A DNA stretch of 20,696 bases. Origin: a virus. Position numbers and translations under genes: made by a program. Where the stretch lies: UHGV virus genome UHGV-0115176. One strand, 5' to 3'. Position 1 is the first letter of the stretch; each line of letters starts with the position of its first letter. The notes under the pieces are model-generated. The model was not told where the DNA came from and searched no databases. It worked only from the letters and a program-made list of their open reading frames with translations. Of the stretch, positions 6,760 to 20,696 are shown one piece after another.

Positions 6760-6922
6760 CACCCTTAATCCTCTCGAAGTTCTTCTCGAAGTTTTTGGTG
6801 TCGAACACTGACCACCGACCATTATGAATGGCGTATGCACAGGTCTTGTTTTCGTCCTGATAAACTACCCTTACCTTGCGATAAAACCGTGGCTTAATCT
6901 CTCTGAATATTTGCTCGCTCAT
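6740..6922 (-). CDS. Hypothetical small protein (60 aa)
   Basis: ATG at 6920-6922 preceded by GAAGGAG SD; MSEQIFREIKPRFYRKVRVVYQDENKTCAYAIHNGRWSVF...; overlaps the ninB start by 20 nt in another frame. Confidence 0.6.
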   Translation of the reverse strand: MSEQIFREIKPRFYRKVRVVYQDENKTCAYAIHNGRWSVFDTKNFEKNFERIKGDEETNI

Positions 6923-7171: not shown

Positions 7172-7210
7172 CCCCCAAATAAAAAGGCCTGCGATTACCA
7201 GCAGGCCTTT
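7172..7210. terminator. Strong hairpin / candidate bidirectional intrinsic terminator overlapping the stop of HNH gene 2
   Basis: Perfect 10-bp inverted repeat AAAGGCCTGC (7183-7192) / GCAGGCCTTT (7201-7210) with an 8-nt loop; U-rich tracts follow on both strands (minus UUUUAUUUG; plus AUCUUUUUUU). Confidence 0.6.
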
Positions 7211-7820
7211 ATCTTTTTTTAACACGCTTTCGAGTCCTTTTAGATTTTTCCTTAAGATATTCCGCAAGTTTATCCTCATCATTATTAAATTGAGATAAAA
7301 GCTCATGCTCGCAATTAAGTGCTTTACTCGCATAAGTTCCATATAGTTTCTTTCTTGCTAGTGCTGCTATGAATGCTGCATCTTCTTTGCTATCGAAATA
7401 CCCTAACGATATTGTCTTATTTTTATAACCAACATAAGACTTCCACCTGCCAGTTGTCTTATCCCAAGACACTCCAATCGCACCGGATGTGTTTAACCTA
7501 TTCCCTACAATGTTTCTTGCATTCTGCTCCTCTGTTGCCAGTCTTAGATTTGAAATCCTATTGTCAAGTCTGTTCCCATTTACATGATCAATAAACTTAG
7601 GAGGCCATTTTTTGTATACATAGAACCAAGCAAGTCTATGCGCATAATACAAAACATTATTTATGCTAATGCATATATAACCACCACTAACACCTCCAGC
7701 AATACTACCTTTTACTCTTACTACTGAATTTGTTTTTAGCCATTTAAATATTCCTGTTTCTGAGTCATATGATAATGTTGACAGAAGCTCATCGTGATCA
7801 ATTAGTTTTTTTATTCGCAT
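7209..7820 (-). CDS. HNH homing endonuclease with AP2-type domain (copy 2, AT-rich)
   Basis: 203 aa; FIDHVNGNRLDNRISNLRLATEEQNARN (HNH) and GVSWDKTTGRWKSYVGYKNKTISLGYFDSKEDAAFIAA (AP2-like); paralogous to 3485..3997. Markedly AT-rich with no recognisable SD before the ATG at 7818-7820. Confidence 0.85.
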   Translation of the reverse strand: MRIKKLIDHDELLSTLSYDSETGIFKWLKTNSVVRVKGSIAGGVSGGYICISINNVLYYAHRLAWFYVYKKWPPKFIDHVNGNRLDNRISNLRLATEEQNARNIVGNRLNTSGAIGVSWDKTTGRWKSYVGYKNKTISLGYFDSKEDAAFIAALARKKLYGTYASKALNCEHELLSQFNNDEDKLAEYLKEKSKRTRKRVKKR

Positions 7821-7902: not shown

Positions 7903-9783
7903 TTAATACTCCGTCACGTTTTCCTGTCGCCACGCCTCGTCATATTCCGATTTCGGCATATTGGCGATGTAGCTATATGGCGATCCTGATTCAAGTTGCA
8001 GGAACTGGTGCGATTGCTCGTCAAGGAACAACGGGACACCACCTTCCCAACCTTCGCCGTTACGTTGTTTTTCAAGCATCAAAACAGATGCAGGAGACGC
8101 CAGTAGCTGTTCGTCCTTCTCTGACATCTTTTCACCACTCTGAACTCTCTGTAACGCTCTCTCGCGAGCCTTGTTACGCCAGATGATGAAAAGGTTGTCT
8201 GTCAGGTCTGTTATCGCTCCAGAGCCTTTTACGTCCATTTTCCCGGTTGGTTTTTCTTCGCTGTCTCCTTTTCGCGAGTGAGTAACGAGAATGACGTGGG
8301 AGTTTGTTTTGTTTTTGAAGTCGCAAATCGAGTCAACAAACGCCTTCTGCCCGTTATAGTCATCGTCGCCTATGCCACATTTCATCAGGCTGTCGATGAT
8401 GAATAACTGGATCCCGTATCGGCGGCGAGCGTAGTCGAATATTTCGATCAGCCTGTCGGCTTTCGCCGTTCCGGTCAGGCCAAACACCCAAAGTCTTTCG
8501 TCATAAAATTTAAATGCAGAGTCAATTTCCAGCACTGGCGGCATCTTGCAGCACGTCGCCTGACGGGTAAGGCGCTTAAGGAGAATACCAGGCTTCAGCT
8601 CAAGTGACGCGATGCACGTCTTCACACCCTGACGCATTGCCTCAAGTGCCATATGCCCGACAACCTCCGTTTTTCCGTGACCGTTCACCCCATTGACCAG
8701 CGTCAACTCTGCCTCACGGAACTGGAATTTATCTGCCAGAGATTCCCACGGTGGATTAAACAGATACTGCTGCTTGCCGTAGAAAGCGTTGATAGTGTCC
8801 TGGTAAAACTCTCGCGCGCTGTAGAGTTCTTCAGGATCGAAGTAGGATGCCGTGCCGATGTACTGCCAGATTTCATCCTCGGTAACACCGTTCATCAGGC
8901 ATTCGTTGATGTCTTTGTACGGCAGAGTAACAAGACGGCAACGATGTTCACCGAGTCGGCTTGCGATTTCCCTTGCGGCTTCACGACCAACATCATCAAC
9001 GTCCATCGAGATGAATATTTCCTCAAACCTGTCGAGGTTGTGATACTCAAACTCAATCCACTGTTGCTTAGCGCCTTTCCCGCCACCAAACGGCACGGAT
9101 AACGCCGAGATGCCGTATTGCGCATAGCTCATACAATCAATTTCGCCTTCGCAAAGCACAACCGCCCTCACGCCAGCGTCCAGAGCCTGCCATCCGAACA
9201 GGCAAGGTTCGCAATCACCTTCTGCCATAATGACTTTCTTCCCGTCCGGGCGCTCAGTGCTGATTCGCTTGACCTGCAACAACTCACCATCGCGTTTGTA
9301 CGGAATCACCAGAGCATCCAGTTCCCGCTCTCCATTCCACACCTTGCCGCTGACAACCTCGTAGCGCTTTACGATTTCTGGCGATATGCCACGCGATTGC
9401 AGGTACTCAAGATGGGATTCTGTTCTGGTAACGTAGCGGGCGATTTTCTTACGATCAGGTCTGGAGAATTTCTTCTCACGTCTGGCATCGAAATGGTGAT
9501 CGTCATCCTTGATACCGAGAAATGCTTTCGCTTCCTGCATAGCCTGATGCAGGTTAATTCCACGACATGCCATCCACAAATCAAGCATGTCACCGCCGTC
9601 TCCCTCAGCGAAATCAGCCCATTTTTTCTTGCCGCTAAGGTTGACCTTAAGGCTGTTTCCCTTGTCACCGTTGACGTTACCGGCAACCCACTCATGCCCC
9701 TCTTTCTTGCCGTTTGGCAACAGGTGTGGAGCCACCCTGTCAACCTGCGCCCAAAGCAGGTAGCTAAGTTCACTTGGAGTCAT
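7903..9783 (-). CDS. Bifunctional DNA primase / replicative helicase (TOPRIM + P-loop DnaB/gp4-like)
   Basis: 626 aa; TOPRIM-like acidic motif VVLCEGEIDCMSYAQYGI, Walker A GVNGHGKT, Walker B-like FIIDSLMKCGIGDDD; ATG at 9781-9783 with GAGGG SD. Confidence 0.8.
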   Translation of the reverse strand: MTPSELSYLLWAQVDRVAPHLLPNGKKEGHEWVAGNVNGDKGNSLKVNLSGKKKWADFAEGDGGDMLDLWMACRGINLHQAMQEAKAFLGIKDDDHHFDARREKKFSRPDRKKIARYVTRTESHLEYLQSRGISPEIVKRYEVVSGKVWNGERELDALVIPYKRDGELLQVKRISTERPDGKKVIMAEGDCEPCLFGWQALDAGVRAVVLCEGEIDCMSYAQYGISALSVPFGGGKGAKQQWIEFEYHNLDRFEEIFISMDVDDVGREAAREIASRLGEHRCRLVTLPYKDINECLMNGVTEDEIWQYIGTASYFDPEELYSAREFYQDTINAFYGKQQYLFNPPWESLADKFQFREAELTLVNGVNGHGKTEVVGHMALEAMRQGVKTCIASLELKPGILLKRLTRQATCCKMPPVLEIDSAFKFYDERLWVFGLTGTAKADRLIEIFDYARRRYGIQLFIIDSLMKCGIGDDDYNGQKAFVDSICDFKNKTNSHVILVTHSRKGDSEEKPTGKMDVKGSGAITDLTDNLFIIWRNKARERALQRVQSGEKMSEKDEQLLASPASVLMLEKQRNGEGWEGGVPLFLDEQSHQFLQLESGSPYSYIANMPKSEYDEAWRQENVTEY

Positions 9784-9890: not shown

Positions 9891-10682
9891 TCACCTGTCG
9901 AAAAACACGTAGCCAGTTTTCGATACGGTGATTGCGGATGATGGTTTGGATTGTGGTTGAATAGTTTCTGGCTTCTCGTCGTTCCAGCGCTGACCGTTCA
10001 GGTAGCTCGATGGTAACAACCTGTCGAATCCGAACTGCTTACCATTCCTGCATGCGATGTCTTCTGCCAGCATCGTGGCAAACTCGCTTGCCGTACCCCT
10101 GGTAGTTTTACGCCATTCCCTGAACTGTGTTCTGAATGCTGAAGCTGCGTTTTTCTTCCCGGCTTTCCGCATGCCTGCACACCAGAATATTTCCTCGAAT
10201 GCCTTGTCGGTTTCTTCGTGACGGTCAGGAGTTTTTTCACACTCTGTTCGGACATGTTCGAACATAATGTTTTTAGGTTCATTGACTGGTTCAAAAGAGT
10301 GACTGGTTCTGGGTGAATCTCCTGCACTACCCCCTGGTGCAACTCCTGCACTACCTGGTGAATTTGCTGCACCAGATAGTGAATTATTTGCACTACCCCC
10401 TAGTGAATCTCCTGCACCATCCAGATGAAGGAGATAGATATTACTTGAGTTACCTTTTTCACCTTTCCGGGTGACTTTTTTTACCAGCCCGGACTCACAA
10501 AGGGCCGCAATATGATTCATCACAGAACGTTTGCTAATCTCGCACTGGTCAGCAATATGCTGGTAGCTGGGCCAGCACTCACCCTGATCGCTGGCATTAT
10601 CAGCCAGCTTGATCAGAACCAGTTTTCGCAATGGATTACCCACTCGAATTTTCATCGCTTTAACCATCAGCTCCATACTCAT
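9891..10682 (-). CDS. Replication initiator (HTH DNA-binding, lambda O-like role) containing an internal iteron array
   Basis: 263 aa; N-terminal winged-helix/HTH-like region (KIRVGNPLRKLVLIKLADNASDQGECWPSYQHIADQCEISKRSVMNHIAALCESGLVKKV), then a Gly/Ser/Ala low-complexity linker encoded by the direct repeats, then a C-terminal domain; the ATG overlaps the upstream stop. Confidence 0.7.
   Translation of the reverse strand: MSMELMVKAMKIRVGNPLRKLVLIKLADNASDQGECWPSYQHIADQCEISKRSVMNHIAALCESGLVKKVTRKGEKGNSSNIYLLHLDGAGDSLGGSANNSLSGAANSPGSAGVAPGGSAGDSPRTSHSFEPVNEPKNIMFEHVRTECEKTPDRHEETDKAFEEIFWCAGMRKAGKKNAASAFRTQFREWRKTTRGTASEFATMLAEDIACRNGKQFGFDRLLPSSYLNGQRWNDEKPETIQPQSKPSSAITVSKTGYVFFDR
10312..10422. 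repeat. Five imperfect 21-24 bp direct repeats (iterons), candidate replication origin inside the initiator gene
   Basis: Plus-strand units start near 10312, 10336, 10357, 10379 and 10403 with core GTGAAT(C/T)T(C/G)CTGCAC(T/C)A(C)C; flanked at 10427-10470 by a more AT-rich stretch. Confidence 0.6.
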
Positions 10683-10903
10683 GCTGCACCTCCGAGATGC
10701 TTCATGTTTTTTCCGGAGCGAAAGGCTATAAGCGGCATACTGACGCGGTAATTACGGCCCAGCGGTTCACAAACCACCTTCTGACATTCACGGTCAACCA
10801 GGCTAACACGTAGAACATGCCCTGCAGGCGTGGTGTACCACTGACCCGGACGAGGACAACGGAAAGTATGATTGGTAAACCGTTTGAAAATATTCCGGAT
10901 CAT
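10679..10903 (-). CDS. Hypothetical small protein (74 aa) with three Cys (possible zinc-ribbon-like)
   Basis: ORF-track ORF; 4-nt overlaps with both neighbours (ends 10900/10903 and 10679/10682) imply a translationally coupled operon member. Confidence 0.55.
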   Translation of the reverse strand: MIRNIFKRFTNHTFRCPRPGQWYTTPAGHVLRVSLVDRECQKVVCEPLGRNYRVSMPLIAFRSGKNMKHLGGAA

Positions 10904-12060
10904 TTGCGCCCCCTTACCTCTGAAGGGTTCAGCGACAAATTTATGAGACTGGCCAGTAGCGCCGCGTCGTTGATGCGGTCATACAGACTTACAGCCAGCG
11001 GGGATTCGGCTTTTGCCAACATGGGATAAAGCTGCTGCAGCCAGACCTTGTGGATTACCGACAGGTGGGAGTAAAGCACGCTGGCGTTATCTGCGGCATC
11101 GCTCAGCGTGGATGGCTTTGAAAGCAGTTTTTCCATCTGGTTAAAGGCATTTATGTATGCCTCTTTGAACCGGGCAGCACGTTTACCCGTGAAACCCATA
11201 GCAAGAAACGCAAAACCGTCTCGTGTGATTTGATAGCAAGGGAGCTTGCGTGTACCACCGTTCGGTTGATTTACCGAAATCGATGTCTCCGCAAAATTGC
11301 GGGCACAAAACTCTGGGGAACAATCCAGAGTGCGGATCTTTTTCAGCACATCGTCGTGACGCTTGGAGAAGAAGTTGGCAACAGCCAAAGAAGTGGTAAC
11401 GGCCTGGCCGTTGTCAATGGTGATTTCAGGTTGAGTGAGGGCTGGGATCGTAGCCATGATGGCAGCCTCCGTTGACAGTGAAAAACTTCCACCACCGGAA
11501 ACGCCAATTTCACTGGTGGTGAACTGGACGGGGTTGGCGTAACCGGCGTCAACGGAGACCGGCGCACCTTTCGGTGCCCCCGCCCAGCCCACCATAATCT
11601 GGATGTGAGCAAATGCGGACGATAAAAAAGACGCTGGCGCGTCATACATCGCCGTTGACAATTTCAGGACGCCAATCCCGGCACCCGCTTTATAAGGTGC
11701 CTGAGCAGTGTAACGTCCCGGAATTGCAGAATCAATATGCTGGTGGTCCTTCACACTCAACAAAATCACGCCTGAATTTCCACAAAGGACTAAAGCACTC
11801 ATGCGGGTAGTCTTTGCGAAGATAGATAACGCGCTGTGTTTCTGGCTCCCAACGAATAACATGGACATAAAGCCCTCTTCCGTCACGAAACCAGCGGTTA
11901 AGTTCCTGCACAACTCGCCCCCCACAGTCAGGTAAAGTTCTCTGTGGTTACTTACAGCCAGGTGATTTGGTAATCTGCATTCATGCCGTAACAACAGGTG
12001 TTCAGCGACGCTGACCACCAGCTGTTGCGACAAACGGTTATTTGCCGTTAAACTATTCAT
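10900..12060 (-). CDS. Rha-family phage regulatory protein, long ORF with a ~200-codon N-terminal extension (canonical Rha start at 11457)
   Basis: The segment from the internal ATG at 11455-11457 (GGAGG SD 8 nt upstream) reads MATIPALTQPEITIDNGQAVTTSLAVANFFSKRHDDVLKKIRTLD...ITRDGFAFLAMGFTGKRAARFKEAYINAFN, a Rha-type N-terminus. The same frame stays open for 201 further codons upstream to an ATG at 12058-12060 that overlaps the preceding gene's stop. Confidence 0.55.
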   Translation of the reverse strand: MNSLTANNRLSQQLVVSVAEHLLLRHECRLPNHLAVSNHRELYLTVGGELCRNLTAGFVTEEGFMSMLFVGSQKHSALSIFAKTTRMSALVLCGNSGVILLSVKDHQHIDSAIPGRYTAQAPYKAGAGIGVLKLSTAMYDAPASFLSSAFAHIQIMVGWAGAPKGAPVSVDAGYANPVQFTTSEIGVSGGGSFSLSTEAAIMATIPALTQPEITIDNGQAVTTSLAVANFFSKRHDDVLKKIRTLDCSPEFCARNFAETSISVNQPNGGTRKLPCYQITRDGFAFLAMGFTGKRAARFKEAYINAFNQMEKLLSKPSTLSDAADNASVLYSHLSVIHKVWLQQLYPMLAKAESPLAVSLYDRINDAALLASLINLSLNPSEVRGRK

Positions 12061-12626
12061 GCGTTAGTTTCTCCACAACCAGAAGCAATCGACGCCACGA
12101 CGCCCGGAGCTGCACACTCGCGGGCGTCACTCTTTTCTGGAGCGCAAAAGATTTTGTAGACCAGTGCTGCATGCTCCTGGAGCTTCGAAATTGACAGATA
12201 CAACTCATCATTAATTGCTGTCTGCTCGTGTGGCTCCACTACCCCATCTTCGATTGCCGAACGAATCTGCTTTGAGTAACTCCCGATCTGTTCGATGACT
12301 TCCAGCAGGCGCTGGTTTATATCGGCATTCTCTACTTCCTCAATTTCAGGAAGCGATACAAACACCCCACCAGCAGACTGTGCGACAGCATCCGCAATGT
12401 AGTGAGTGCCAGCCGCGCGCTGTAAAATCATTGCCCATCCCAGCGGGAAAATCTGATCGCCATCTGCACGAAGGCGGTTGAATAAAGCGTTCTCTGTTAC
12501 ATCCAGCCACTCAGCAGCTTCAGCGTAACCCCCCGGCAACGCCGCGATAGTTTTTCTGACAGCTTTCACGTACCACTCAGGCTGTTTTTCTACTTTCCAG
12601 TGATGCTTACCCACGGTTAGCCTCAT
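12057..12626 (-). CDS. CII/YdaT-like early regulatory protein (family assignment tentative)
   Basis: 189 aa; second gene of the rightward early operon, directly after cro, the position of cII/ydaT-type genes in lambdoid and Rac-like prophages; family from memory only. Confidence 0.6.
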   Translation of the reverse strand: MRLTVGKHHWKVEKQPEWYVKAVRKTIAALPGGYAEAAEWLDVTENALFNRLRADGDQIFPLGWAMILQRAAGTHYIADAVAQSAGGVFVSLPEIEEVENADINQRLLEVIEQIGSYSKQIRSAIEDGVVEPHEQTAINDELYLSISKLQEHAALVYKIFCAPEKSDARECAAPGVVASIASGCGETNA

Positions 12627-12657
12627 CGTTCTGTGGTTAAAAATTGAAGGTGTTCTG

Positions 12658-12858
12658 TTAATCTTTCGGATAGATATCCGGTCTTAAGTCAGATTTCGTA
12701 ATTGCACCTGACGTGCATTGCTCAAGTTTTTTAGCCAGCACAAAACTGGCTTTTTTATAACCATTGAAAACCAGCCGTAAGTAGCCTGGTGTTGAGCCAA
12801 CTTTTCCGGCCAACTCGCCCTGCTGTTCTTTGGTTAAAGAGTCCCAATACGCTTTCAT
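12658..12858 (-). CDS. Cro/YdaS-like HTH repressor
   Basis: 66 aa from the ATG at 12856-12858 (MKAYWDSLTKEQQGELAGKVGSTPGYLRLVFNGYKKASFVLAKKLEQCTSGAITKSDLRPDIYPKD), with GGAGG SD 7 nt upstream; divergent from the cI-like gene. The longer ORF-track ORF to 13161 would run through the operator region and the cI start. Confidence 0.75.
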   Translation of the reverse strand: MKAYWDSLTKEQQGELAGKVGSTPGYLRLVFNGYKKASFVLAKKLEQCTSGAITKSDLRPDIYPKD

Positions 12859-12861
12859 ACA

Positions 12862-12884
12862 ATATGTACCTCCGATATACATAT
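12862..12884. promoter_or_regulatory. Candidate operator OR-a (ATATGTACC-N5-GATATACATAT dyad)
   Basis: Inverted arms ATATGTA (12862-12868) / TACATAT (12878-12884) overlapping the pR -10 and the cro SD; a further TACAT copy at 12885-12889. Confidence 0.5.
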
Positions 12885-12913
12885 TACATGATTGAGATGA
12901 ACCTTCAAGATAC

Positions 12914-12932
12914 TTGTACCCTATCGGTACAA
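12914..12932. promoter_or_regulatory. Candidate operator OR-b (TTGTACC-N5-GGTACAA perfect dyad)
   Basis: Perfect 7-bp inverted repeat around a 5-bp spacer, overlapping the candidate pRM -35 and lying just upstream of the pR -35. Confidence 0.45.
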
Positions 12933-12948
12933 AGGTTTTAATTTCGTT

Positions 12949-13623
12949 ATGAAAACAGTCCATGACATCCGGCGGTCTAACGCCAGAAAACTGAGAGATG
13001 GTGTTGGCGGGAATTCTTCCTTTGCCACCATGATTGATCGCGAGCCAACCCAGACCAGCAGGTTTATGGGAGATGGTGCTACTAAAAATATCGGTGACAG
13101 CATGGCACGGCACATCGAAAAATGTTTCGACCTGCCTGTCGGATGGCTTGATCAAGAACACCAGACAACAAACATCACAAAAAAACCTGATGTTTCAATT
13201 ACTAACAAACAAATAACGTTAGTCCCTGTCATATCATGGGTACAGGCCGGAGCATGGAAAGAAGTTGGCTATTCTGAGGTTGATTTGAGCACAGCAGAAA
13301 CTTATCCCTGCCCTGTACCCTGTGGCGAAATGACTTATATCTTGCGGGTGATTGGTGATTCAATGATTGATGAGTACCGCCCGGGAGACATGATTTTTGT
13401 AGATCCTGAAGTCCCTGCCTGCCACGGTGACGACGTTATTGCATTGATGCACGATACGGGCGAAACCACCTTTAAGCGGTTGATAGAAGATGGAACACAG
13501 CGTTACCTCAAAGCATTAAACCCAAACTGGCCTGAACCTTACATTAAGATCAACGGTAATTGCTCTATAATTGGTACAGTAATTTTCTCAGGAAAACCAA
13601 GAAGATACAAAATAAAGGCCTAA
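12949..13623 (+). CDS. CI-like prophage repressor (N-terminal HTH, C-terminal S24 LexA-type autopeptidase)
   Basis: 224 aa; HTH-like N-terminus (ARKLRDGVGGNSSFATMIDREPTQTSRFMGDGATKNIGDSMARHIEKCF); C-terminal S24 signature with Ser in VIGDSM and Lys in TTFKRL; divergent from cro. Confidence 0.85.
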   Translation: MKTVHDIRRSNARKLRDGVGGNSSFATMIDREPTQTSRFMGDGATKNIGDSMARHIEKCFDLPVGWLDQEHQTTNITKKPDVSITNKQITLVPVISWVQAGAWKEVGYSEVDLSTAETYPCPVPCGEMTYILRVIGDSMIDEYRPGDMIFVDPEVPACHGDDVIALMHDTGETTFKRLIEDGTQRYLKALNPNWPEPYIKINGNCSIIGTVIFSGKPRRYKIKA

Positions 13624-13634
13624 TCAATATTTAT

Positions 13635-13658
13635 AACCTGCTTCGGCAGGTTTTTTTA
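13635..13658 (+). terminator. Intrinsic terminator after the repressor gene
   Basis: AACCTGC-TTCG-GCAGGTT (7-bp stem, tetraloop) followed by T7 (13651-13657), 12 nt after the cI stop. Confidence 0.75.
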
Positions 13659-13661
13659 TAC

Positions 13662-13694
13662 TTGACAATGTACCCTTGAGATACATAATGTATC
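13662..13694 (+). promoter_or_regulatory. pL-like promoter (TTGACA-N16-CATAAT) with overlapping operator dyads
   Basis: Consensus -35 TTGACA (13662-13667) and -10 CATAAT (13684-13689); dyad ATGTA (13668-13672) / TACAT (13682-13686) and perfect palindrome GATACATAATGTATC (13680-13694); the 23-mer 13666-13688 matches OR-a at 16 of 23 positions. Confidence 0.6.
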
Positions 13695-14181
13695 TAAAAG
13701 AAACATGCCACAGGCAAGATTAAACAAAATTTGGTTGTAACACGGCGTATGGCACATGCGTCGTTAGCGGTCTGGGGACGTTAAAGGGGACAATCCACTC
13801 CTTGCTCGGGCAAACAAACCAGGTAGCCGGAATGTGCAAGTCAATGATGATGCTGATAAGACGCCTAACCAGCGTGGCGATTCGGTTTGACGCCTGGGAA
13901 GAGACCAGGACGCAACGATGAGAGCATTGACGAGCAAGGCATAAGTGCTGGTTCAATTCCAGACAGTCCCATTCAGATGGGAGGGTTGGGCAGGGAAAAG
14001 GTCCGTTCGATTCGGACACCGGCAATGCTCTCAGCGTTGTGGTGAATGCGCAGGCTGATGCGCGAAAGACATTGCAGCTATTGCGGAAAAGAGCTGTTCG
14101 GCGGGGCAATCAAACGCCCGTGAGAGTCTGAAATAACCGCAAGCCGGAGATCAGCACCGGCACCACAACAGCCACTGCTTT

Positions 14182-14228
14182 GGCGGTACCAGTTTGTACA
14201 CTTGCTTCCGGCTGGTACCGCTCTTTTT
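14182..14228 (+). terminator. Strong intrinsic terminator inside the pL leader, ~140 nt before the first early-left gene
   Basis: Stem GGCGGTACCAG (14182-14192) / CTGGTACCGCT (14212-14222), 10-11 bp and GC-rich, followed by CTTTTT (14223-14228); the 19-nt loop contains TTGTACA. Confidence 0.6.
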
Positions 14229-14365
14229 ACAAAACAGAGAAGAGCATCACCGGACGACGGGCTCATAACCCAATCCATCCGGGCGGCTGTCACCGCAGGT
14301 GTTCTTCTCTGTTTTGTGGAGAAACCAACCGACCTTGCAGGGTCGGTATGATGAGGAGCAGCAAA

Positions 14366-14728
14366 ATGGCTAGCGTACGCAGTACTGATGTGCAGGTATT
14401 TATCGTAGAACTGGACGGCGGCGTATTTGAAACCAAACTCGGCGCAGTTCTCAGTGAAGTCGCTTCCGGTGTGATGAACACGAAAAACAAAGGTAAAGTC
14501 TCGGTCAATCTGGACATCGAACCGTTTGATGAGAACCGTGTGAAAATCAAACACAAACTCTCATATGTTCGCCCGACTAACCGCGGGAAAATTTCCGAAG
14601 AAGACACCACCGAAACACCGATGTATGTCAATCGCGGTGGTCGCCTGACTATTCTGCAGGAAGACCAGGGACAATTACTGACTCTTGCCGGTGAACCTGA
14701 CGGAAAACTACGCGCAGCAGGTCATTAA
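14366..14728 (+). CDS. yfdP: YfdP-like early protein (120 aa), first gene of the leftward early operon
   Basis: ATG at 14366 with GAGGAG SD 7 nt upstream (MASVRSTDVQVFIVELDGGVFETKLGAV...); the upstream in-frame portion of ORF 14180..14728 is Cys/Arg/Pro-rich and looks noncoding. Identity inferred mainly from synteny with the clearer yfdQ/yfdR/yfdS matches. Confidence 0.6.
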   Translation: MASVRSTDVQVFIVELDGGVFETKLGAVLSEVASGVMNTKNKGKVSVNLDIEPFDENRVKIKHKLSYVRPTNRGKISEEDTTETPMYVNRGGRLTILQEDQGQLLTLAGEPDGKLRAAGH

Positions 14729-14793
14729 TATCGTTCTTAATTAACTGATTATTTATCTCATCACTGAATATCTTAATATAGTGAGGACTTATT

Positions 14794-15618
14794 ATGTCTC
14801 AGAACTTAGACGCAACCGCAATTAATCAAATCCATGCCCTTATTTCTGCTCAGGGTGTTAATGAAATTATCAGTAAGATTGGTGCCGATGCTGTGGCATT
14901 GCCTGAGAATTTCCGCATTCATGATCTGGAAAAATTTAATTTAAATCGCTTCCGTTTCCGTGGTGCGCTTTCCACTGCCAGCATCGATGACTTTACCCGT
15001 TATTCTAAAGATCTTGCAGATGAAGGCACCCGCTGCTTTATCGATGCCGATAATATGCGAGCCATCAGTGTGCTTAACCTGGGTACTATTGATGAACCAG
15101 GTCACGCAGATAACACCGCCACTCTCAAACTGAAAAAGACAGCACCGTTCTCTGCCCTGCTGTCTGTTAATGGCGAGCGTAACTCCCAGAAGTCACTGGC
15201 AGAATGGATTGAAGACTGGGCCGACTATCTTGTGGGCTTTGATGCTAATGGTGACGCTATTAAGGCAACAAAAGCGGCTGCGGCAGTCCGTAAAATCACG
15301 ATTGAAGCAAACCAGACCGCTGATTTTGAAGATAATGACTTCAGCGGCAAACGCTCTTTGATGGAGTCTGTCGAAGCGAAAACCAAAGACATTATGCCAG
15401 TAGCATTTGAGTTTAAATGCGTTCCGTTTGAAGGCCTGAAAGAACGTCCGTTTAAATTACGCCTCAGCATTATCACTGGTGATCGCCCTGTACTGGTTCT
15501 GCGCATTATTCAGCTGGAAGCAGTGCAGGAAGAAATGGCTAACGAATTTCGTGATCTGCTTGTTGAAAAATTCAAAGACAGCAAAGTAGAAACCTTTATT
15601 GGTACTTTCACCGCCTGA
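14794..15618 (+). CDS. yfdQ: YfdQ-like protein (DUF2303 family)
   Basis: 274 aa, [48 protein letters not shown]...; matches my recollection of E. coli K-12 CPS-53 YfdQ; GAGG SD 7 nt before the ATG. Confidence 0.75.
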
Positions 15619-15631
15619 TTTCATTACTGCA

Positions 15632-15651
15632 AATGCCCCTGCGGGGGCATT
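15632..15651 (+). other. Intercistronic hairpin between yfdQ and yfdR (weak terminator or attenuator candidate)
   Basis: AATGCCCC-TGCG-GGGGCATT (perfect 8-bp stem, tetraloop) followed by a short U-tract (TTAT). Confidence 0.3.
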
Positions 15652-15746
15652 TATGGAAACGTAATTAACTCAATAATCGCCGGATGGTGCGGGATTCCTT
15701 TTACCCGAATTCAGCGCGGTGCAGCGCATATAAAGTGGAGAACGAA

Positions 15747-16283
15747 ATGTCATTTATTAAAACTTTTTCCGGGAAGCATTTTTATTATGACAAGATAAAT
15801 AAAGACGACATCGTGATTAACGATATCGCGGTTTCCCTTTCAAATATCTGTCGCTTTGCAGGACATCTTTCACACTTCTACAGTGTCGCCCAGCATGCGG
15901 TGCTTTGCAGCCAGCTGGTGCCGCAGGAATTTGCTTTTGAAGCGTTAATGCATGATGCAACAGAAGCGTATTGCCAGGATATTCCCGCTCCACTGAAACG
16001 CCTTCTTCCTGACTATAAACGGATGGAAGAAAAAATAGACGCCGTAATCCGTGAGAAATACGGGTTACCCCCGGTTATGAGCACGCCTGTGAAATATGCC
16101 GATCTCATCATGCTGGCAACCGAACGCCGCGATCTCGGGCTTGATGATGGCTCTTTCTGGCCAGTACTGGAAGGTATCCCGGCAACAGAAATGTTCAAAG
16201 TTATTCCACTGGCTCCGAGCCATGCCTACGGGATGTTTATGGAACGTTTTAACGAGTTATCGGAGTTACGCAAATGCGCATGA
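15747..16283 (+). CDS. yfdR: HD-domain phosphohydrolase (YfdR-type 5'-deoxynucleotidase)
   Basis: 178 aa from the ATG at 15747 (MSFIKTFSGKHFYYDKINKDDIVINDIAVSLSNICRFAGHL...EALMHDATEAYCQDIP...), with HD-type His/Asp metal-ligand motifs; GGAG SD upstream. The ORF-track start at 15684 is an upstream extension. Confidence 0.8.
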   Translation: MSFIKTFSGKHFYYDKINKDDIVINDIAVSLSNICRFAGHLSHFYSVAQHAVLCSQLVPQEFAFEALMHDATEAYCQDIPAPLKRLLPDYKRMEEKIDAVIREKYGLPPVMSTPVKYADLIMLATERRDLGLDDGSFWPVLEGIPATEMFKVIPLAPSHAYGMFMERFNELSELRKCA

Positions 16284-16636
16284 ATGTTTTCGAAATGGAA
16301 GGGTTTCTTCGCGGGAAATGTGTACCACGAGATCTGAAAGTGAATGAAACAAATGCTGAGTACCTGGTACGTAAATTCGATGCGCTTGAAGCTAAATGTG
16401 CGGCACTGGAAAACAAAATAATACCAGTGTCAGCTGAACTGCCGCCAGCAAATGAAAGTGTTCTGTTATTTGATGCTAACGGAGAAGGCTGGCTAATTGG
16501 CTGGCGTTCTCTCTGGTACACCTGGGGACAAAAAGAAACCGGAGAATGGCTGTGGACATTTCAGGTCGGGGACCTTGAAAACGTCAATATCACTCACTGG
16601 GCAGTAATGCCGAAAGCACCGAAGAATAAAAAATGA
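16274..16636 (+). CDS. yfdS: YfdS-like DUF551 protein
   Basis: 120 aa, MRMNVFEMEGFLRGKCVPRDLKVNETNAEYLVRKFDALEAK...ITHWAVMPKAPKNKK; overlaps the yfdR end by 10 nt. Confidence 0.7.
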   Translation: MRMNVFEMEGFLRGKCVPRDLKVNETNAEYLVRKFDALEAKCAALENKIIPVSAELPPANESVLLFDANGEGWLIGWRSLWYTWGQKETGEWLWTFQVGDLENVNITHWAVMPKAPKNKK

Positions 16637-16836
16637 GCGTGATAAAAACTCATACAGGAATTGTTATCACCCGAGACGGTCCGCAGGTAAAAAAACTGCA
16701 CCAGACAAAGCGGATGTGGGTCGTCGGAAAAAACGAGTTTTACCACAAAGAAACCGGACGCCGCCACTTTGCAGAAAATACTCGCCGCCGACTGCTGATC
16801 GATACCATCAAGCCTATCGAGGTGAAGCATGTTTAA
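16633..16836 (+). CDS. Hypothetical basic small protein (67 aa)
   Basis: ATG at 16633 overlaps the yfdS stop (ATGA). Confidence 0.55.
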   Translation: MSVIKTHTGIVITRDGPQVKKLHQTKRMWVVGKNEFYHKETGRRHFAENTRRRLLIDTIKPIEVKHV

Positions 16837-17068
16837 ACAGAACGAAAAATCTATCGCTCAAATTGCTGAGTATATCCCGCGTGCGTGCCGGGGTATGCAG
16901 TTGCAGGAAGCCAAAGCACGCCTGGAGAAAAAAATTGCGCTCTATATCGATGACGGCTGTGATACTGCCGTTCTTAACGCGGCGTTCGCGCCAGCTCTTA
17001 ACAGTCATACGCGAAAGTCTTTTTTTTCGTGCATCGCAGCGCAGATCCGTAAAGGAGGCAACCAGTGA
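16829..17068 (+). CDS. Hypothetical protein (79 aa)
   Basis: ATG at 16829 with GAGGTG SD; overlaps neighbours at both ends. Confidence 0.55.
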   Translation: MFKQNEKSIAQIAEYIPRACRGMQLQEAKARLEKKIALYIDDGCDTAVLNAAFAPALNSHTRKSFFSCIAAQIRKGGNQ

Positions 17069-17601
17069 GCAACATTAACTATCAGGTACTGCGTGAGGCG
17101 GCAGAACGTGCAATTCCAGCAATGGAACGCCTGTTAATGTTGCCAGCTGATGATGATTTGTTAAGTGAACAGGAACTTAAAGATTACGGTGTGGATATTG
17201 ATGCGCTCAATGCCTTCAAATTTCTGACCGGACCAGAAACCGTGCTGGCACTACTGGATGAACGGGAAAGAAACCAGCAATACATCAAACGCCGCGACCA
17301 GGAGAACGAGGATATTGCGCTTACGGTTGGGAAGCTGCGCGTTGAGCTTGAAGCAGCAAAATCAAAACTCAACGAGCAGCGCGAGTATTACGAGGGAGTT
17401 ATCTCTGATGGGTGCAAGCGTATTGCTGAACTGGAAGCGCGGGAAGTTCAATTACCGACTCGCTACGACCTTCGATATGGACACCCGATAAATGCAGATG
17501 AGCGACAAGTCATGATACCTAAAGAAAATGGCAGTTGGCTTTACCTGATTGACCTAGAACACGCATTACGCGTCGCTGACATTCGCATCAAAGGAGAGTG
17601 A
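17065..17601 (+). CDS. Ead/Ea22-like early protein (GTG start)
   Basis: 178 aa; start codon is GTG at 17065-17067 preceded by AAAGGAGG 6 nt upstream and overlapping the upstream stop (GTGA); central coiled-coil-like segment; the MSNINYQ... N-terminus resembles Ea22-type proteins of lambdoid phages as I recall them. Confidence 0.6.
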   Translation: MSNINYQVLREAAERAIPAMERLLMLPADDDLLSEQELKDYGVDIDALNAFKFLTGPETVLALLDERERNQQYIKRRDQENEDIALTVGKLRVELEAAKSKLNEQREYYEGVISDGCKRIAELEAREVQLPTRYDLRYGHPINADERQVMIPKENGSWLYLIDLEHALRVADIRIKGE

Positions 17602-17602
17602 T

Positions 17603-17866
17603 ATGGCAACTTTGACAAAAAAAGAACAAGCATGGTTGAGCGAATTACAGGACGTTCTTGATCGCTGCCCATCACCGAAAAAAATTGGTTTTTACACCAT
17701 TGGCGATAAAAGCATTTACCTGTATGACCTGCGCCGCATGGATGAAATCATGGAGGCTCTTGATAATCGTTCGTCAATGGATTGGTGTGTTGCTGTTCAT
17801 GATATGAATGCCGGATTTGATGAAAAGATTTTATTCCCCTCATCAGTTGAAAGTACAGCAGGATAA
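17603..17866 (+). CDS. Hypothetical protein (87 aa)
   Basis: ATG at 17603 with AAGGAG SD. Confidence 0.55.
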   Translation: MATLTKKEQAWLSELQDVLDRCPSPKKIGFYTIGDKSIYLYDLRRMDEIMEALDNRSSMDWCVAVHDMNAGFDEKILFPSSVESTAG

Positions 17867-17876
17867 GGACTAACAC

Positions 17877-18638
17877 ATGACCACTATTACCAAAGAGCGA
17901 CTGCTGACAATCAGGCAGTGGCGCGAAACATACGGACCTGGTAGCAACGTTGTACTGCCAGCAGAAGAAGCGGAAGAACTGGCACGAATTGCTCTGGCAT
18001 CGCTGGAAGCAGAGCCGATAGGTTTCCGTTGCAGGCGCAATGATAACCTTGGTGATTGGAGTTACGTATATCATCGAGAGCCAGATGATTTTGAGCGCAA
18101 ACATTTAGTGATAGAGGGCATTTACGCCGCCCCTCCAGCACCGGTAGTGCCTGAAGAAGCAACTCCGGAAAACGTAGAAATGCTCTCTGGCTATGTTTCA
18201 ACGTACAAATTAACCGATAGCGAGCGCGATATTGCTGCCGAAATATGGAACGCCTGCCGCGCCGCCATGCTTCAGTCCGGAAACTTTCGGGAAAACAAGA
18301 ATTCGTCAACCAATAATTTTCGGGAAATCGCGGAAACGTCAACCAACTATCCGGCAATTCCTAGTGAGGTGTTGTCCGCAATCCTGAAGGTTGCCAGGAT
18401 TCGTGCCGATTTCGATGATTTTGACGGTGACAGGCGAGGTATCGGTGATTGTCTGGATGAGGCTGAGCAAGAGCTTATCGTTACCATTAACAAATATGCC
18501 AGTCAGTTGGCAGCAGAACCTATAGCGCCTAATGACGTTCGAGAGCAGACAGCCATTCCACAAGTTCCGGTAACTCCGGATGGTTGGATAAGCTGTAGTG
18601 AGCGAATGCCGGACGACAGGCAGGAGGTGAATCAATGA
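17877..18638 (+). CDS. Hypothetical acidic protein (253 aa)
   Basis: ATG at 17877 with AAGGA SD; the C-terminal ...PDGWISCSERMPDD resembles the beginning of DUF551-type domains but the frame stops 9 codons later. Confidence 0.6.
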   Translation: MTTITKERLLTIRQWRETYGPGSNVVLPAEEAEELARIALASLEAEPIGFRCRRNDNLGDWSYVYHREPDDFERKHLVIEGIYAAPPAPVVPEEATPENVEMLSGYVSTYKLTDSERDIAAEIWNACRAAMLQSGNFRENKNSSTNNFREIAETSTNYPAIPSEVLSAILKVARIRADFDDFDGDRRGIGDCLDEAEQELIVTINKYASQLAAEPIAPNDVREQTAIPQVPVTPDGWISCSERMPDDRQEVNQ

Positions 18639-18718
18639 GCTGGCCTGATGCAATCGTAACTCTGGGGGTGGTCTTCGCAGCAGCGTTTGTTGTGTTCTCG
18701 ATTTGTCGATGGGGATAA
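18635..18718 (+). CDS. Possible small hydrophobic peptide (27 aa, single TM helix)
   Basis: Hand translation MSWPDAIVTLGVVFAAAFVVFSICRWG; ATG at 18635-18637 overlaps the upstream TGA (ATGA) and is preceded by AGGAGGTGA; below the ORF-track cutoff. Confidence 0.35.
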   Translation: MSWPDAIVTLGVVFAAAFVVFSICRWG

Positions 18719-18722
18719 CCAC

Positions 18723-18965
18723 ATGTTCGCTTTGATTCAACGCGGTCAGATATACACGGACAGAGCTGGATACCCCGTGGTGATTACTCGCATCACTGAG
18801 CACTCAGTGTTCTTTCGACGGATGGACGGACGATCCGGGCGGGTACGCATTGGTGAGTTAAACTGCCTGTTCGAACATATTGACCACCAGGAGTACCGCA
18901 AAATTCTCGCGGACACTGAGCAGGAAAAGCACCTGAAAAAATTACGAGCCATGAAAAGGAAGTAA
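18723..18965 (+). CDS. Small hypothetical protein (80 aa; DUF4222-like, tentative)
   Basis: Internal ATG at 18723 of ORF 18687..18965 (MFALIQRGQIYTDRAGYPVVITRITEHSVFFRRMDGRSGRVRIGELN...). Confidence 0.55.
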   Translation: MFALIQRGQIYTDRAGYPVVITRITEHSVFFRRMDGRSGRVRIGELNCLFEHIDHQEYRKILADTEQEKHLKKLRAMKRK

Positions 18966-18968
18966 ACA

Positions 18969-19103
18969 ATGAATAAAGCATTTGAACGATGGGTCCACCA
19001 GCGTTACGGCAATCGCTATGATCTGACGCGAGATGTTGACGGTTTCTACTGTCGTGAAGTTGTGAAGCGAATGTTTGAAGTGTGGTGCCACTGCCGTGGA
19101 TGA
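18969..19103 (+). CDS. Possible small Cys-containing ORF (44 aa)
   Basis: Hand translation MNKAFERWVHQRYGNRYDLTRDVDGFYCREVVKRMFEVWCHCRG; starts 3 nt after the upstream stop. Confidence 0.3.
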   Translation: MNKAFERWVHQRYGNRYDLTRDVDGFYCREVVKRMFEVWCHCRG

Positions 19104-19121
19104 AAGTTTTATGAGGTTGGC

Positions 19122-19376
19122 ATGCAGACAATCATCTATCAGATAACCCCCAGCAAATGGTGTACGGAGAGAGTCCTTATTGCATCAACAGGGCTAAAGC
19201 CTGGCACCATTGAGCGGGCAAGAAGAAAGTCATGGATGCAGGGAAAAGAATACCGCCATTACGCTGTAGAAGGTGATCCGGGGCACTACAGTGAATGCCT
19301 GTACAACATCGAAGAAATTATGCGATGGATCGAAAACCAGAAACAACCAGGTGCCAAAAATGCAAGTTCCGGTTAA
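19122..19376 (+). CDS. xis: Excisionase-like DNA-binding protein (Xis)
   Basis: 84 aa immediately upstream of the integrase on the same strand; W...G(K/R)EY pattern reminiscent of lambda-type Xis; GAGG SD. Confidence 0.6.
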   Translation: MQTIIYQITPSKWCTERVLIASTGLKPGTIERARRKSWMQGKEYRHYAVEGDPGHYSECLYNIEEIMRWIENQKQPGAKNASSG

Positions 19377-19409
19377 CCTGTTAATGCTCCTGGACGTCTG
19401 GGAGGTTTA

Positions 19410-20696
19410 ATGAGTAACGCATCATACCCGACAGGCGTTGAAAACCATGGAGGATCACTCCGTATATGGTTTCACTATAATGGCAAACGTGTCAGAGAAA
19501 ACCTCGGTGTTCCTGACACAGCCAAAAACCGGAAGATCGCTGGTGAACTTCGCACTTCCGTTTGTTTTGCAATCAGAATGGGGAGTTTCGACTACGCCGC
19601 GCAGTTCCCTAATTCCCCTAACCTGAAACACTTTGGTCTGGGAAAAAGAGAGATAACCGTTAAGGCACTTTCGGAAAAATGGTTGGACCTTAAGAAAATT
19701 GAGATTTGTGCGAATGCACTTAACCGTTACCAGTCAGTAATTAAAAACATGTTACCAATGTTAGGTGAAAAAAAACTGGTTTCATCCATAACAAAAGAGG
19801 ATTTACTTTTCGTAAGGAGAGATTTGTTGACCGGTTACCAAAAGCTTTCTAATGGAAAGACTTCTTCCATAAAAGGGCGCTCAGTGGTCACGGTAAACTA
19901 CTATATGACAACCATAGCTGGAATGTTTCAATTTGCAACAGATAATGGTTATACCTCAGGAAACCCATTTAACGGTCTGGCTCCCTTAAAAAAGTCCAAG
20001 GTAAAACCAGATCCTCTCACCCGTGACGAATTTATTCGTTTTATTGAGGCTTGCCGTCATCAACAAACAAAAAACCTGTGGATTCTCGCTGTATACACGG
20101 GTATTCGTCACGGGGAGTTGGTATCGCTGGCATGGGAAGATATAGACCTTAAAGCAAGGACTATAACCATCCGTAGAAATTATACAAAACTTGGCGAATT
20201 CACTCCACCAAAAACCGATGCAGGCACCGGAAGGACAATTCATCTGGTTCAACCAGCTATTGATGCTCTTAAAAGCCAGGCGGAAATGACCATGCTTGGA
20301 AAGCAACATTCTGTAGAGGTGAAGCAGAGGGAATATGGGAGAACTGCTGTGCATAAATGCACTTTTGTTTTTAGTCCTCAGGTAACAAAACAGCAGCAGT
20401 TGTCCGGACCTCACTACAAGGTTGACTCCATCAGGGAGTCATGGACAAGTATCTTAAAACGCGCAGGTCTGAGACACAGAAAATCGTACCAATCCAGGCA
20501 TACTTATGCATGCTGGTCACTTGCCGCAGGAGCTAATCCTAGTTTTATCGCAAGCCAGATGGGCCACACAAACGCACAAATGGTATTCAATGTTTACGGA
20601 GCATGGATGAAAGACAACAATCACGAACAGATAGAACTCCTTAACAAAAGACTATCTGAAAGTGTCCCATGTATGCCCCATAAGAAAGTTGGGTAA
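19410..20696 (+). CDS. int: Tyrosine-type site-specific integrase
   Basis: 428 aa; arm-binding-type N-terminus, catalytic-type residues in ...TGIRHGELVSLAWEDID..., ...SRHTYACWSLAAG... (HxxR) and ...VYGAW... (Tyr); stop at the last bases of the window. AT-rich relative to neighbours. Confidence 0.9.
   Translation: MSNASYPTGVENHGGSLRIWFHYNGKRVRENLGVPDTAKNRKIAGELRTSVCFAIRMGSFDYAAQFPNSPNLKHFGLGKREITVKALSEKWLDLKKIEICANALNRYQSVIKNMLPMLGEKKLVSSITKEDLLFVRRDLLTGYQKLSNGKTSSIKGRSVVTVNYYMTTIAGMFQFATDNGYTSGNPFNGLAPLKKSKVKPDPLTRDEFIRFIEACRHQQTKNLWILAVYTGIRHGELVSLAWEDIDLKARTITIRRNYTKLGEFTPPKTDAGTGRTIHLVQPAIDALKSQAEMTMLGKQHSVEVKQREYGRTAVHKCTFVFSPQVTKQQQLSGPHYKVDSIRESWTSILKRAGLRHRKSYQSRHTYACWSLAAGANPSFIASQMGHTNAQMVFNVYGAWMKDNNHEQIELLNKRLSESVPCMPHKKVG

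Follow-up and report, generated by a model that had tools for sequence, protein, structure and literature searches.

Introduction

Proteins that inhibit DnaA have been described in several systems, among them lambda P, which acts on domain III, and SirA of Bacillus subtilis, which acts on domain I at Phe49 (PMC4776307). The closest of these to the locus analyzed here is encoded by the CPS-53 (KplE1) remnant of Escherichia coli K-12. Purified K-12 YfdR binds DnaA domains I-II through a Phe46-dependent contact on domain I, using a surface to which DiaA and DnaB also bind, as does SirA in Bacillus (PMC4776307). In vivo, multicopy yfdQRS or yfdQRT inhibits initiation at oriC in the wild type and in hda, dnaAcos and seqA mutants, and extracts oversupplied with YfdQRST inhibit the oriC-dependent in vitro system (PMC4776307). 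For inhibition of oriC in K-12, YfdQ is needed alongside YfdR and yfdP is dispensable; stable binding of YfdQ, YfdS or YfdT to YfdR or DnaA was not found (PMC4776307). All of these functional data come from multicopy expression, the deletion of yfdQRST caused no replication phenotype, and the authors considered an overexpression artefact possible, suggesting at the same time a role in the ancestral phage resembling that of lambda P (PMC4776307). [quoted passage not shown]

In this work, a stretch of 20,696 nucleotides from the virus genome UHGV-0115176 (hereafter, the window) was analyzed. [quoted passage not shown] The locus was read as the pL (early-left) operon of an E. coli lambdoid prophage, probably one of the "no Rec module" type; it carries a CPS-53/KplE1-type accessory cassette, preceded by a conserved leader RNA.

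Results and Discussion

Identity of the Cassette Genes

The four cassette proteins were compared by global alignment with the CPS-53 proteins of E. coli K-12 MG1655, and identities of 93-99% were obtained. All of the genes lie on the + strand: the yfdP orthologue at 14366-14728 (120 aa, 112/120 residues identical), the yfdQ orthologue at 14794-15618 (274 aa, 270/274), the yfdR orthologue at 15747-16283 (178 aa, 175/178) and the yfdS orthologue at 16274-16636 (120 aa, 115/120). The longest open reading frame of yfdR begins at 15684; the annotated start of the 178-aa protein is 15747, with a GGAG Shine-Dalgarno sequence. A single co-linear DNA match with K-12 covers positions 14347-16624 of the window (2278 bp, 96.3% identity), and all four proteins share gene order and near-identical full-length sequence with their K-12 CPS-53 orthologues. 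The predicted positions (14366-16636, + strand) were exact and the family assignments were also correct.

YfdQ belongs to the DUF2303 family (PF10065), matching over residues 7-272 of 274 with 306.9 bits, against a gathering cut-off of 26.6. A homologue was found in PDB entry 9o7m (E = 1.6e-44), a 36-chain deposit that yielded no functional clue when it was considered as a guide to YfdQ, and no whole-protein fold match was found for the AF2 model of YfdQ (pLDDT 75.7). YfdP matches phrog_204, and PF27127 appears in its precomputed annotation. YfdS combines a coiled N-terminus with a DUF551-like C-terminus; it matches phrog_583 (1.9e-81) and marginally misses DUF551 (PF04448), with 21.0 bits over residues 50-117 against a cut-off of 22.

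The arrangement of the cassette is ordinary and was previously known: it is present in 3214 of the 5426 complete E. coli genomes and in 165 phage records, it is annotated in thousands of genomes, and its place in lambdoid early-left operons was published in 2025.

Layout of the Early-Left Operon

A cI-type (LexA/S24) prophage repressor is encoded at 12949-13623 (+; Peptidase_S24, 1.5e-26), annotated in identical E. coli loci as LexA family protein or ymfK, and a cro-like gene lies divergently from it at 12658-12858 (-). The repressor gene sets the direction of the early-left operon. An intrinsic-terminator-like hairpin at 13635-13652 (+), formed by a 7-bp stem and followed by TTTTTTTA, probably closes the repressor transcript, and phage Ayreon has an annotated terminator at the corresponding position. 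It is followed by a pL-like sigma-70 promoter at 13662-13689 (+; TTGACA-16-CATAAT, 11/12 positions matching), whose spacer contains a putative repressor operator at 13669-13685 (+; TGTACCCTTGAGATACA / TGTACCNNNNNNNTACA). The same type of operator occurs twice between cro and cI, at 12865-12881 and 12915-12931, and the motif has five matches in total against 0.68 expected. This operator-bearing promoter lies beyond the repressor as seen from cro and reads towards xis/int, as does the pL of lambda.

According to the Pfam and PHROG scans, the rest of the operon (16633-19376, +) consists of small open reading frames, an Ead/Ea22-like gene (17065-17601, +), a gene for a DUF551-start protein (17877-18638, +), a DUF4222 gene (18687-18965, +) and the excisionase gene xis (19122-19376, +), and the integrase gene (19410-20696) stands at the end. 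The order of repressor, terminator, operator-bearing promoter, cassette, xis and int bears out the predicted early-left position beside the immunity region. The statement that the cassette holds the first genes transcribed from pL has to be amended, since a conserved and structured leader of about 670 nt (13696-14365) precedes yfdP.

No N antiterminator was found as the first gene or, by the Pfam and PHROG scans, elsewhere in the operon, and the interval 13690-14365 contains no credible open reading frame. Two terminator-like hairpins were detected on the + strand downstream of the promoter, one inside the leader (14183-14228; 12-bp stem followed by UCUUUUU, centroid -19.5 kcal/mol) and another between yfdQ and yfdR (15633-15654; 9-bp GC-rich stem followed by UUUAU, z = -3.1), where a terminator is also annotated in phage Ayreon. 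With these two hairpins in the path and no N gene, expression of the cassette from the predicted pL is no more than plausible. An N-less lambdoid operon with terminator-like hairpins raises in itself the question of read-through.

Recombination and Replication Functions

As the original prediction had stated, a lambda-type Rec module is absent: Pfam and PHROG scans detected no exo, bet, gam, erf, recT or abc family in any open reading frame between 14366 and 18965, and no recombinase, nuclease, annealing-protein or anti-RecBCD family in the early-left operon. NinB and NinG are present in the phage, the NinG homologue in the nin region. Moreover, four Chi sites were counted against 0.62 expected, three of them on the lambda-convention top strand, in the 20.7 kb covered, the cos-proximal part lying outside. 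The missing Rec module, NinB and NinG, and the four Chi sites are compatible with the class described in PMC12315714, which is marked by the lack of Rec proteins and by surplus Chi sites on the strand that serves RecBCD coming in from the right end, with a genome-wide bias towards the end nearest cos. For replication, the window encodes an initiator (HTH_36/DnaD_N, 9891-10682) and a Toprim-DnaB-type primase-helicase (7903-9783).

Proposed Function of the Cassette

The original prediction had contrasted the cassette with the host-takeover genes of lambda, but the only activity for which it has been tested is precisely host-directed, namely DnaA binding and inhibition of oriC by the K-12 copies (PMC4776307). 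The YfdR of the window is 98% identical to the K-12 protein that binds DnaA, and the set sufficient for inhibition, Q+R+S, is present. Gene identity and operon layout were established for the window, and the biochemistry and genetics for the K-12 orthologues; from these we infer that the same activity would be exerted during phage growth. We give an even chance to the reading that YfdQRS, expressed from pL, blocks initiation at the host oriC through the YfdR-DnaA contact in this N-less, Rec-less lambdoid prophage.

In this mechanism, inactivation of the cI-type repressor, or infection, would lead to transcription from the operator-controlled promoter at 13662-13689, and the transcript would pass the structured leader of about 670 nt, allowing the expression of the cassette. 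YfdR, an HD-fold protein and presumably a weak dNMP phosphatase, would contact the Phe46 surface of domain I in the host DnaA and, together with YfdQ and YfdS, would block new rounds of initiation at oriC. Phage replication should escape the block because an initiator and a primase-helicase are encoded by the phage itself, and recombination would be handled by the host RecBCD/Chi system and the phage NinB and NinG.

A different reading, rather unlikely although of some weight, is that YfdR is mainly a phosphohydrolase of dNMPs or other nucleotides that reshapes the early-phage nucleotide pool, its binding to DnaA being incidental. YfdR carries the conserved H...HD...D residues of the HD-domain metal-dependent phosphohydrolase superfamily: its metal-binding motif, H50...H69-D70...D78, is intact and aligns with VAQH / HDA.E / D of the homologous HD hydrolase Atu1052 (PDB 2gz4; 7.9e-14). 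It also matches phrog_318, annotated as "deoxyribonucleoside 5' monophosphate phosphatase" (2.4e-111), and the RefSeq name of the protein is 5'-deoxynucleotidase. The phage records with a YfdR-type HD protein number 333 and span widely differing hosts, with large Caulobacter, Bacillus and Stenotrophomonas phages among them, and for most of them no YfdQ-like neighbour is listed; this wide distribution points to enzymatic activity as the function conserved in the family, DnaA binding perhaps being a local add-on. By contrast, YfdR scored below the cut-offs of the YfbR-like families PF12917 (24.0 against 25.9 bits) and NCBIfam NF003009 (19.9 against 122), and also below that of HD_3 (16.7 bits against 22.5). 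[quoted passage not shown] A role in the nucleotide pool would, in addition, leave unexplained why the cellular phenotype depends on yfdQ together with yfdS or yfdT.

It is improbable that the cassette serves the lysogen, a low expression from the prophage slowing initiation and so helping the host to withstand oxidative or acid stress or DNA damage. Such a benefit would agree with the survival of the cassette in K-12, whose decayed CPS-53 remnant lacks the leader and the immunity region, with its frequency in E. coli (3214/5426 genomes), and with the increased sensitivity to H2O2 or acid after deletion of yfdQ, yfdS or the whole of CPS-53 (cited in PMC4776307). The reported phenotypes are weak, and the cassette of an intact prophage should be silent in the lysogen because it stands behind a repressor-controlled promoter and terminator-like hairpins, which argues against this reading.

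The counter-defence function put forward by the original prediction was not supported and is considered very improbable. In the form considered here, the HD enzyme would destroy nucleotide second messengers or deplete nucleotides, acting against systems such as CBASS, Pycsar, Thoeris or type III CRISPR, or else the cassette would exclude superinfecting phages. The HD superfamily includes cyclic-nucleotide phosphodiesterases, the cassette is mosaic and mobile, and its immediate-early slot beside the immunity region would be a typical home for such genes. Nevertheless, the closest relatives of YfdR are HD proteins of the monophosphatase (dNMP-phosphatase) type and not phosphodiesterases. The ten proteins of the pL operon gave no match at E <= 0.01 in PADLOC-DB, a collection of models for components of anti-phage defence systems. 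No report of counter-defence or phage exclusion was found among the papers retrieved on yfdQ, yfdR and DUF2303, no such phenotype being on record, and a different target, DnaA, has experimental support.

The least probable reading makes YfdP and YfdQ cryptic recombination or DNA-end-handling proteins that replace exo/bet/gam, as the Rec-module slot filled by the cassette, the weak sensitivity to MMS and H2O2 caused by deletion of yfdQ (cited in PMC4776307) and the large assembly of the YfdQ homologue (36 chains in PDB 9o7m) might suggest, but ArgO145 and other phages carry the cluster alongside a separate, complete Rec module, and this role was judged unlikely (PMC12315714).

For the preferred reading, the inhibition of host initiation by YfdQRS, this intact prophage is better suited than the decayed K-12 remnant to a test of the role of the cassette in phage growth, because it combines its own primase-helicase, a repressor-controlled promoter and the sufficient Q+R+S set.

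A Conserved RNA in the pL Leader

The non-coding leader contains, at 13742-14063 (+), a conserved structured RNA of about 320 nt. It was modelled as a pseudoknotted core (13742-13916, +), a long stem in which 13913-13929 pairs with 14023-14039 (+) and whose enclosed insert bears two T-loop-like (tRNA-elbow-like) hairpins, and a conserved 3' tail hairpin (14039-14063, +). Further downstream, shortly before yfdP, a very stable long hairpin was predicted at 14226-14320 (+; -49.1 kcal/mol, z = -7.8 against 200 shuffles). In an alignment of 37 diverse sequences, 95.8% of the cells were paired and compensatory changes were observed in 13 of 30 pairs; none of 500 shuffles scored as high, and slid controls reached 29-43% paired. 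The junction AGCCGGAAUGUGCAAG is invariant, and an invariant 14-mer of the RNA has at least 120 matches in IMG/VR.

The occurrences of this RNA belong to the Enterobacterales. Often its neighbours are tRNA genes of the same strand. In P1, P7 and D6 it belongs to the ban operon, which C1 controls, and directly follows tRNA-Ile; in phages of the epsilon15 type, tRNA-Arg follows about 50-110 nt further downstream. Stand-alone genes for it, in some phages, combine a separate promoter-like site with a terminator-like 3' end. The literature on the ban-operon region of P1 yielded no description of any RNA there.

Several identities were considered for the RNA and set aside. No tRNA or tmRNA was found in the window by ARAGORN. 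The covariance models of Rfam 15 gave no match at E <= 1 in 12000-20696 and chance-level hits only (E >= 0.5) in 13650-14400, and at the loci of P1, the epsilon15-like phages and the stand-alone copies the element was left without any Rfam match, which argues against a known family. The idea of a put-like cis element was weakened by the stand-alone copies and by the nhmmer search, which returned a single copy each for the window and related phages and no hit within 22-32 kb of HK022. Additionally, a conserved block of 40 nt overlaps the annotated "plp" CDS of P1 on the opposite strand; the equivalent frame in the window is broken and without a signal peptide, and the block is therefore read as RNA and not as protein.

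On balance, the evidence is evenly poised for the leader RNA being a member of a widespread family of Enterobacterales phage RNAs that acts in trans and is linked to tRNA, for example as a tRNA mimic or decoy or by binding the machinery of processing or translation, and that occupies here the slot of lambda N. It may be among the more than 10,000 unnamed candidates of PMC10690425. As an unclassified RNA with covariation support that accompanies tRNA genes in unrelated phages, it could matter more than the cassette.

Comparison With Known Systems

The cassette of the window has the same genes, order and spacing as K-12 CPS-53, and runs in both towards the excisionase. The window has three features that have disappeared from K-12, namely the immunity region, the pL promoter and the structured leader in its entirety. 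In K-12, yfdS is followed by yfdT, whereas an unrelated 67-aa open reading frame (phrog_1226) occupies this place in the window. [quoted passage not shown] These phages also resemble the window in lacking an N homologue, in having Chi sites and in carrying a NinG homologue in the nin region, but LLS has only an O-like gene where the phage of the window has a primase-helicase replication module.

The leader RNA and putL of HK022 both lie just downstream of pL in an N-less lambdoid phage. The put RNAs occur as related copies behind both pL and pR and act in cis on the polymerase that transcribes them; the leader RNA differs from them in occurring as one copy per phage and in having no match to the early region of HK022. 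ROOL and GOLLD are phage-borne, highly structured RNAs that often adjoin tRNA genes of the same strand; the leader RNA is likewise phage-borne, structured and tRNA-adjacent, and matches neither model.

Regarding the proteins, YfdR and YfbR have in common the HD fold, the H...HD...D metal site and the 5'-deoxynucleotidase annotation. The logic proposed for YfdR, the blocking of host initiation by binding to DnaA, is shared with lambda P, SirA and DiaA competition; unlike P and SirA, YfdR is an unrelated protein of the HD fold that needs YfdQ and either YfdS or YfdT in vivo.

Organization of the early regions and identity of the cassette

The early region of a lambdoid E. coli prophage makes up the window, whose - strand corresponds to the rightward direction of lambda. 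On this strand, a cro-like gene (12658-12858) is followed by the genes for a CII/CP76-type regulator (12057-12626), a Rha/Ash protein (10900-12060), an HTH_36/DnaD_N initiator (9891-10682), a Toprim-DnaB primase-helicase (7903-9783), NinB (6319-6840), NinG (5369-5980), a metallophosphatase (4701-5372) and the Q antiterminator (4192-4710), past which the lysis genes are found. The Rha/Ash protein is encoded by one 386-aa ORF, flanked by the CII-like gene and the replication genes, which combines an Ash-family domain with a Rha regulatory domain and has two Chi sites inside. Two ORFs with HNH_3 and AP2 domains, resembling homing endonucleases, were also detected on the - strand, one (7209-7820) after the primase-helicase gene and the other (3485-3997) after the Q antiterminator gene.

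On the + strand, the LexA/S24-type repressor gene (12949-13623) is followed by the yfd cassette, the excisionase gene (19122-19376) and the integrase gene (19410-20696), which closes the strand. Because of this order, the + strand 3' of the repressor was identified as the counterpart of the lambda early-left operon. The cassette comprises yfdP (14366-14728), yfdQ (14794-15618), yfdR (15747-16283 as annotated, with 15684 as the start of the longest ORF) and yfdS (16274-16636), all on the + strand, whose products are identical to those of K-12 MG1655 at 112 of 120, 270 of 274, 175 of 178 and 115 of 120 residues, respectively. DNA homology to CPS-53, the cryptic K-12 prophage carrying the same genes, extends from 14347 to 16624 (96.3%). 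Family searches gave a DUF2303 match of 306.9 bits for YfdQ, a strong match of YfdR to the PHROG family annotated as deoxyribonucleoside 5'-monophosphate phosphatase, membership of phrog_204/PF27127 for YfdP and a marginal DUF551 match for YfdS; the HD motif of YfdR (H50, H69-D70, D78) is intact. No match to a nuclease, an annealing protein, an anti-RecBCD protein, N, Kil or CIII was obtained for any ORF between 14366 and 18965. The original prediction had placed a yfdPQRS-type module at exactly 14366-16636 in the early-left operon, with exo/bet/gam, kil and cIII absent; position, coordinates, gene identities, family assignments and absences were all confirmed. The observation therefore stands, while its interpretation holds only in part.

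Distribution of the arrangement

This cassette arrangement is common and has already been described, so that the finding as stated was already known. Among 5426 complete E. coli genomes, 3214 matched a 3.3-kb query consisting of the leader (13696-14365) and the cassette (881 with at least 80% query coverage). The query also matched 165 phage records, among them mEp460, cdtI, Ayreon, 1720a-02 and many Stx2c phages. The RefSeq gene names are already 'YfdP family', 'YfdQ family protein', 'yfdR: 5'-deoxynucleotidase' and 'YfdS family'. A paper of 2025 dealing with lambdoid phages that lack recombination modules also covers the yfd cluster; it describes these phages as N-less and Chi-rich, and the cluster as neither confined to them nor present in all of them (PMC12315714). 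Four Chi sites (GCTGGTGG) were found in the 20.7-kb window against 0.62 expected, three of the four on the lambda-convention top strand; three are clustered in the cII-like/Rha region (11739-12374) and the other lies at 18995-19002. As far as 20.7 kb can show, the Chi excess, NinB and NinG of the prophage are compatible with the Rec-less, Chi-rich class.

Promoter, leader and read-through

A terminator hairpin (13635-13652) follows the repressor gene, and after it lies a near-consensus promoter, TTGACA-16-CATAAT (13662-13689, + strand), whose spacer contains TGTACCCTTGAGATACA, the 17-bp operator type of the two sites between cro and cI. Five hits of this operator type were observed against 0.68 expected. 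Judged by these sites, the early-left operon is predicted to be under repressor control. About 670 nt without a credible ORF separate the promoter from the start codon of yfdP. This structured leader contradicts the earlier proposal that yfdP comes first from pL. Compared with shuffled controls, the leader folds much better (z = -5.4), and it contains a terminator-like hairpin with a 12-bp stem and UCUUUUU (14183-14228, + strand), an exceptionally stable 95-nt hairpin (14226-14320, + strand; -49 kcal/mol, z = -7.8) and a small hairpin immediately 5' of the GAGGAG Shine-Dalgarno of yfdP. Between yfdQ and yfdR lies another terminator-like hairpin (15633-15654, + strand), and a terminator is annotated at the equivalent position in phage Ayreon. 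An N gene is absent, and read-through of transcription to yfdR, yfdS, xis and int in such an N-less phage merits further attention.

A mobile RNA family in the leader

The leader RNA is a real, mobile phage RNA family. In phage P1, the C1-controlled ban operon has an unannotated segment between tRNA-Ile and ban to which positions 13729-13906 are 79% identical. An invariant 14-mer (CCGGAATGTGCAAG) gave at least 120 IMG/VR matches, and a stricter pattern recovered the element in 20 contigs (17 species-representative genomes), all from Enterobacterales except one, a MAG labelled Bacillota. In an alignment of 37 sequences less than 92% identical to one another, the core is composed of a 9-bp 5' hairpin, a helix around a variable hairpin, an invariant AGCCGGAAUGUGCAAG, a hairpin whose U(C/A)ACC loop pairs with a downstream GGU(G/U)U to give a pseudoknot with a C:G to A:U exchange, an invariant GGCGA and a hairpin with a GAAGAGA loop. 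In this structure, 95.8% of the cells are paired and compensatory changes support 13 of the 30 pairs, figures that were not attained in any of 500 shuffles; in slid controls, 29-43% were paired. After the core, a long stem (13913-13929 pairing with 14023-14039, + strand) has an insert that contains a pair of T-loop-like hairpins (UUCAAUU and UUCGAUU) and is followed by a conserved tail hairpin. The whole conserved RNA occupies 13742-14063 (+ strand) at the head of the pL transcript. It matched no Rfam family, and no tRNA or tmRNA was called by ARAGORN in the window.

The same element was found, one copy per phage, in P7, D6 and related phage-plasmids, with tRNA-Ile 5' of it in the ban operon of P1, P7 and D6. 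In epsilon15-like phages (phiV10, SPN1S), the element precedes a tRNA-Arg by about 50-110 nt. A tRNA gene lies within 600 nt in 39 of 121 copies, on the same strand every time, and yfdP is located 3' of the RNA in 32 of the 100 copies whose flanks were long enough for this comparison. Some copies are stand-alone units, with a promoter-like site of their own and a 3' end resembling a terminator. No similarity to the early region of HK022 was found, and a trans-acting RNA is more likely than a put-like cis element. The RNA may be one of the candidates left unnamed in PMC10690425, and such a structured RNA at the head of an operon deserves a closer look.

Part of the 3' end of the RNA, GCUCUCAGCGUUGUGGUGAAUGCGCAGGCUGAUG (~14035-14065, + strand), recurs in many Klebsiella phages, with 31 nt at 100% identity in T765 and KP6 (~160 kb). 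In P1 (L004:1795-1835, in the P1 locus) and D6 this part falls within 'plp', a CDS annotated on the other strand that may therefore be spurious. Between upl and tciA of P1 (L004:2071-2190), the Rfam sRNA STnc100 gave a match below threshold (33.4 bits vs 47, E = 0.001), a further pointer hinting that the P1 ban operon region may be rich in non-coding RNAs.

Possible functions of the cassette

Arrest of host replication initiation is the best-supported mechanism for the cassette, with about an even chance of being correct. The experiments on yfd genes concern the K-12 copies only, and their functional evidence comes from overexpression throughout, deletion giving no phenotype (PMC4776307). A multicopy yfdQRST fragment suppressed the over-initiation of an hda mutant, for which yfdQ, yfdR and either yfdS or yfdT were needed and yfdP was dispensable; the same plasmids inhibited initiation in wild-type, dnaAcos and seqA cells, and extracts oversupplied with YfdQRST inhibited oriC replication in vitro (PMC4776307). 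Initiation arrest is favored here because the Q+R+S set, sufficient in K-12, is intact behind a repressor-controlled early promoter, and because the phage has its own initiator and primase-helicase; a block of the DnaA-DnaB step at oriC should spare such a phage.

A serious rival is that YfdR is purely enzymatic, a nucleotide-pool enzyme. Its metal site is intact and HD proteins of the YfdR type were found in 333 phage records (hosts including Bacillus, Caulobacter, Vibrio and Pseudomonas), but its nucleotide affinity is reported to be much lower than that of YfbR, and it scores under the curated cut-offs of the YfbR families. A cryptic recombination system is unlikely, since ArgO145 has the cluster together with a complete Rec module (PMC12315714), and the AF2 models of YfdQ and YfdP revealed no annealing-protein, nuclease or Gam-like fold. 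PDB 9o7m, deposited as 'YfdQ Protein', contains 36 chains of a homologue of the window YfdQ (14794-15618; E = 1.6e-44), which implies that YfdQ forms a large assembly; a literature search found no publication on this entry. The counter-defence role originally proposed, with gene position as its one argument, found no support, as there was no PADLOC match, the nearest YfdR relatives are monophosphatases, the literature found under the yfd gene and family names deals with other topics, and another, experimentally grounded function exists.

For that function, arrest of host initiation, a comparison with lambda is available: the authors of the K-12 work suggested that these genes once acted like lambda P for a propagating phage, shutting down host initiation (PMC4776307).
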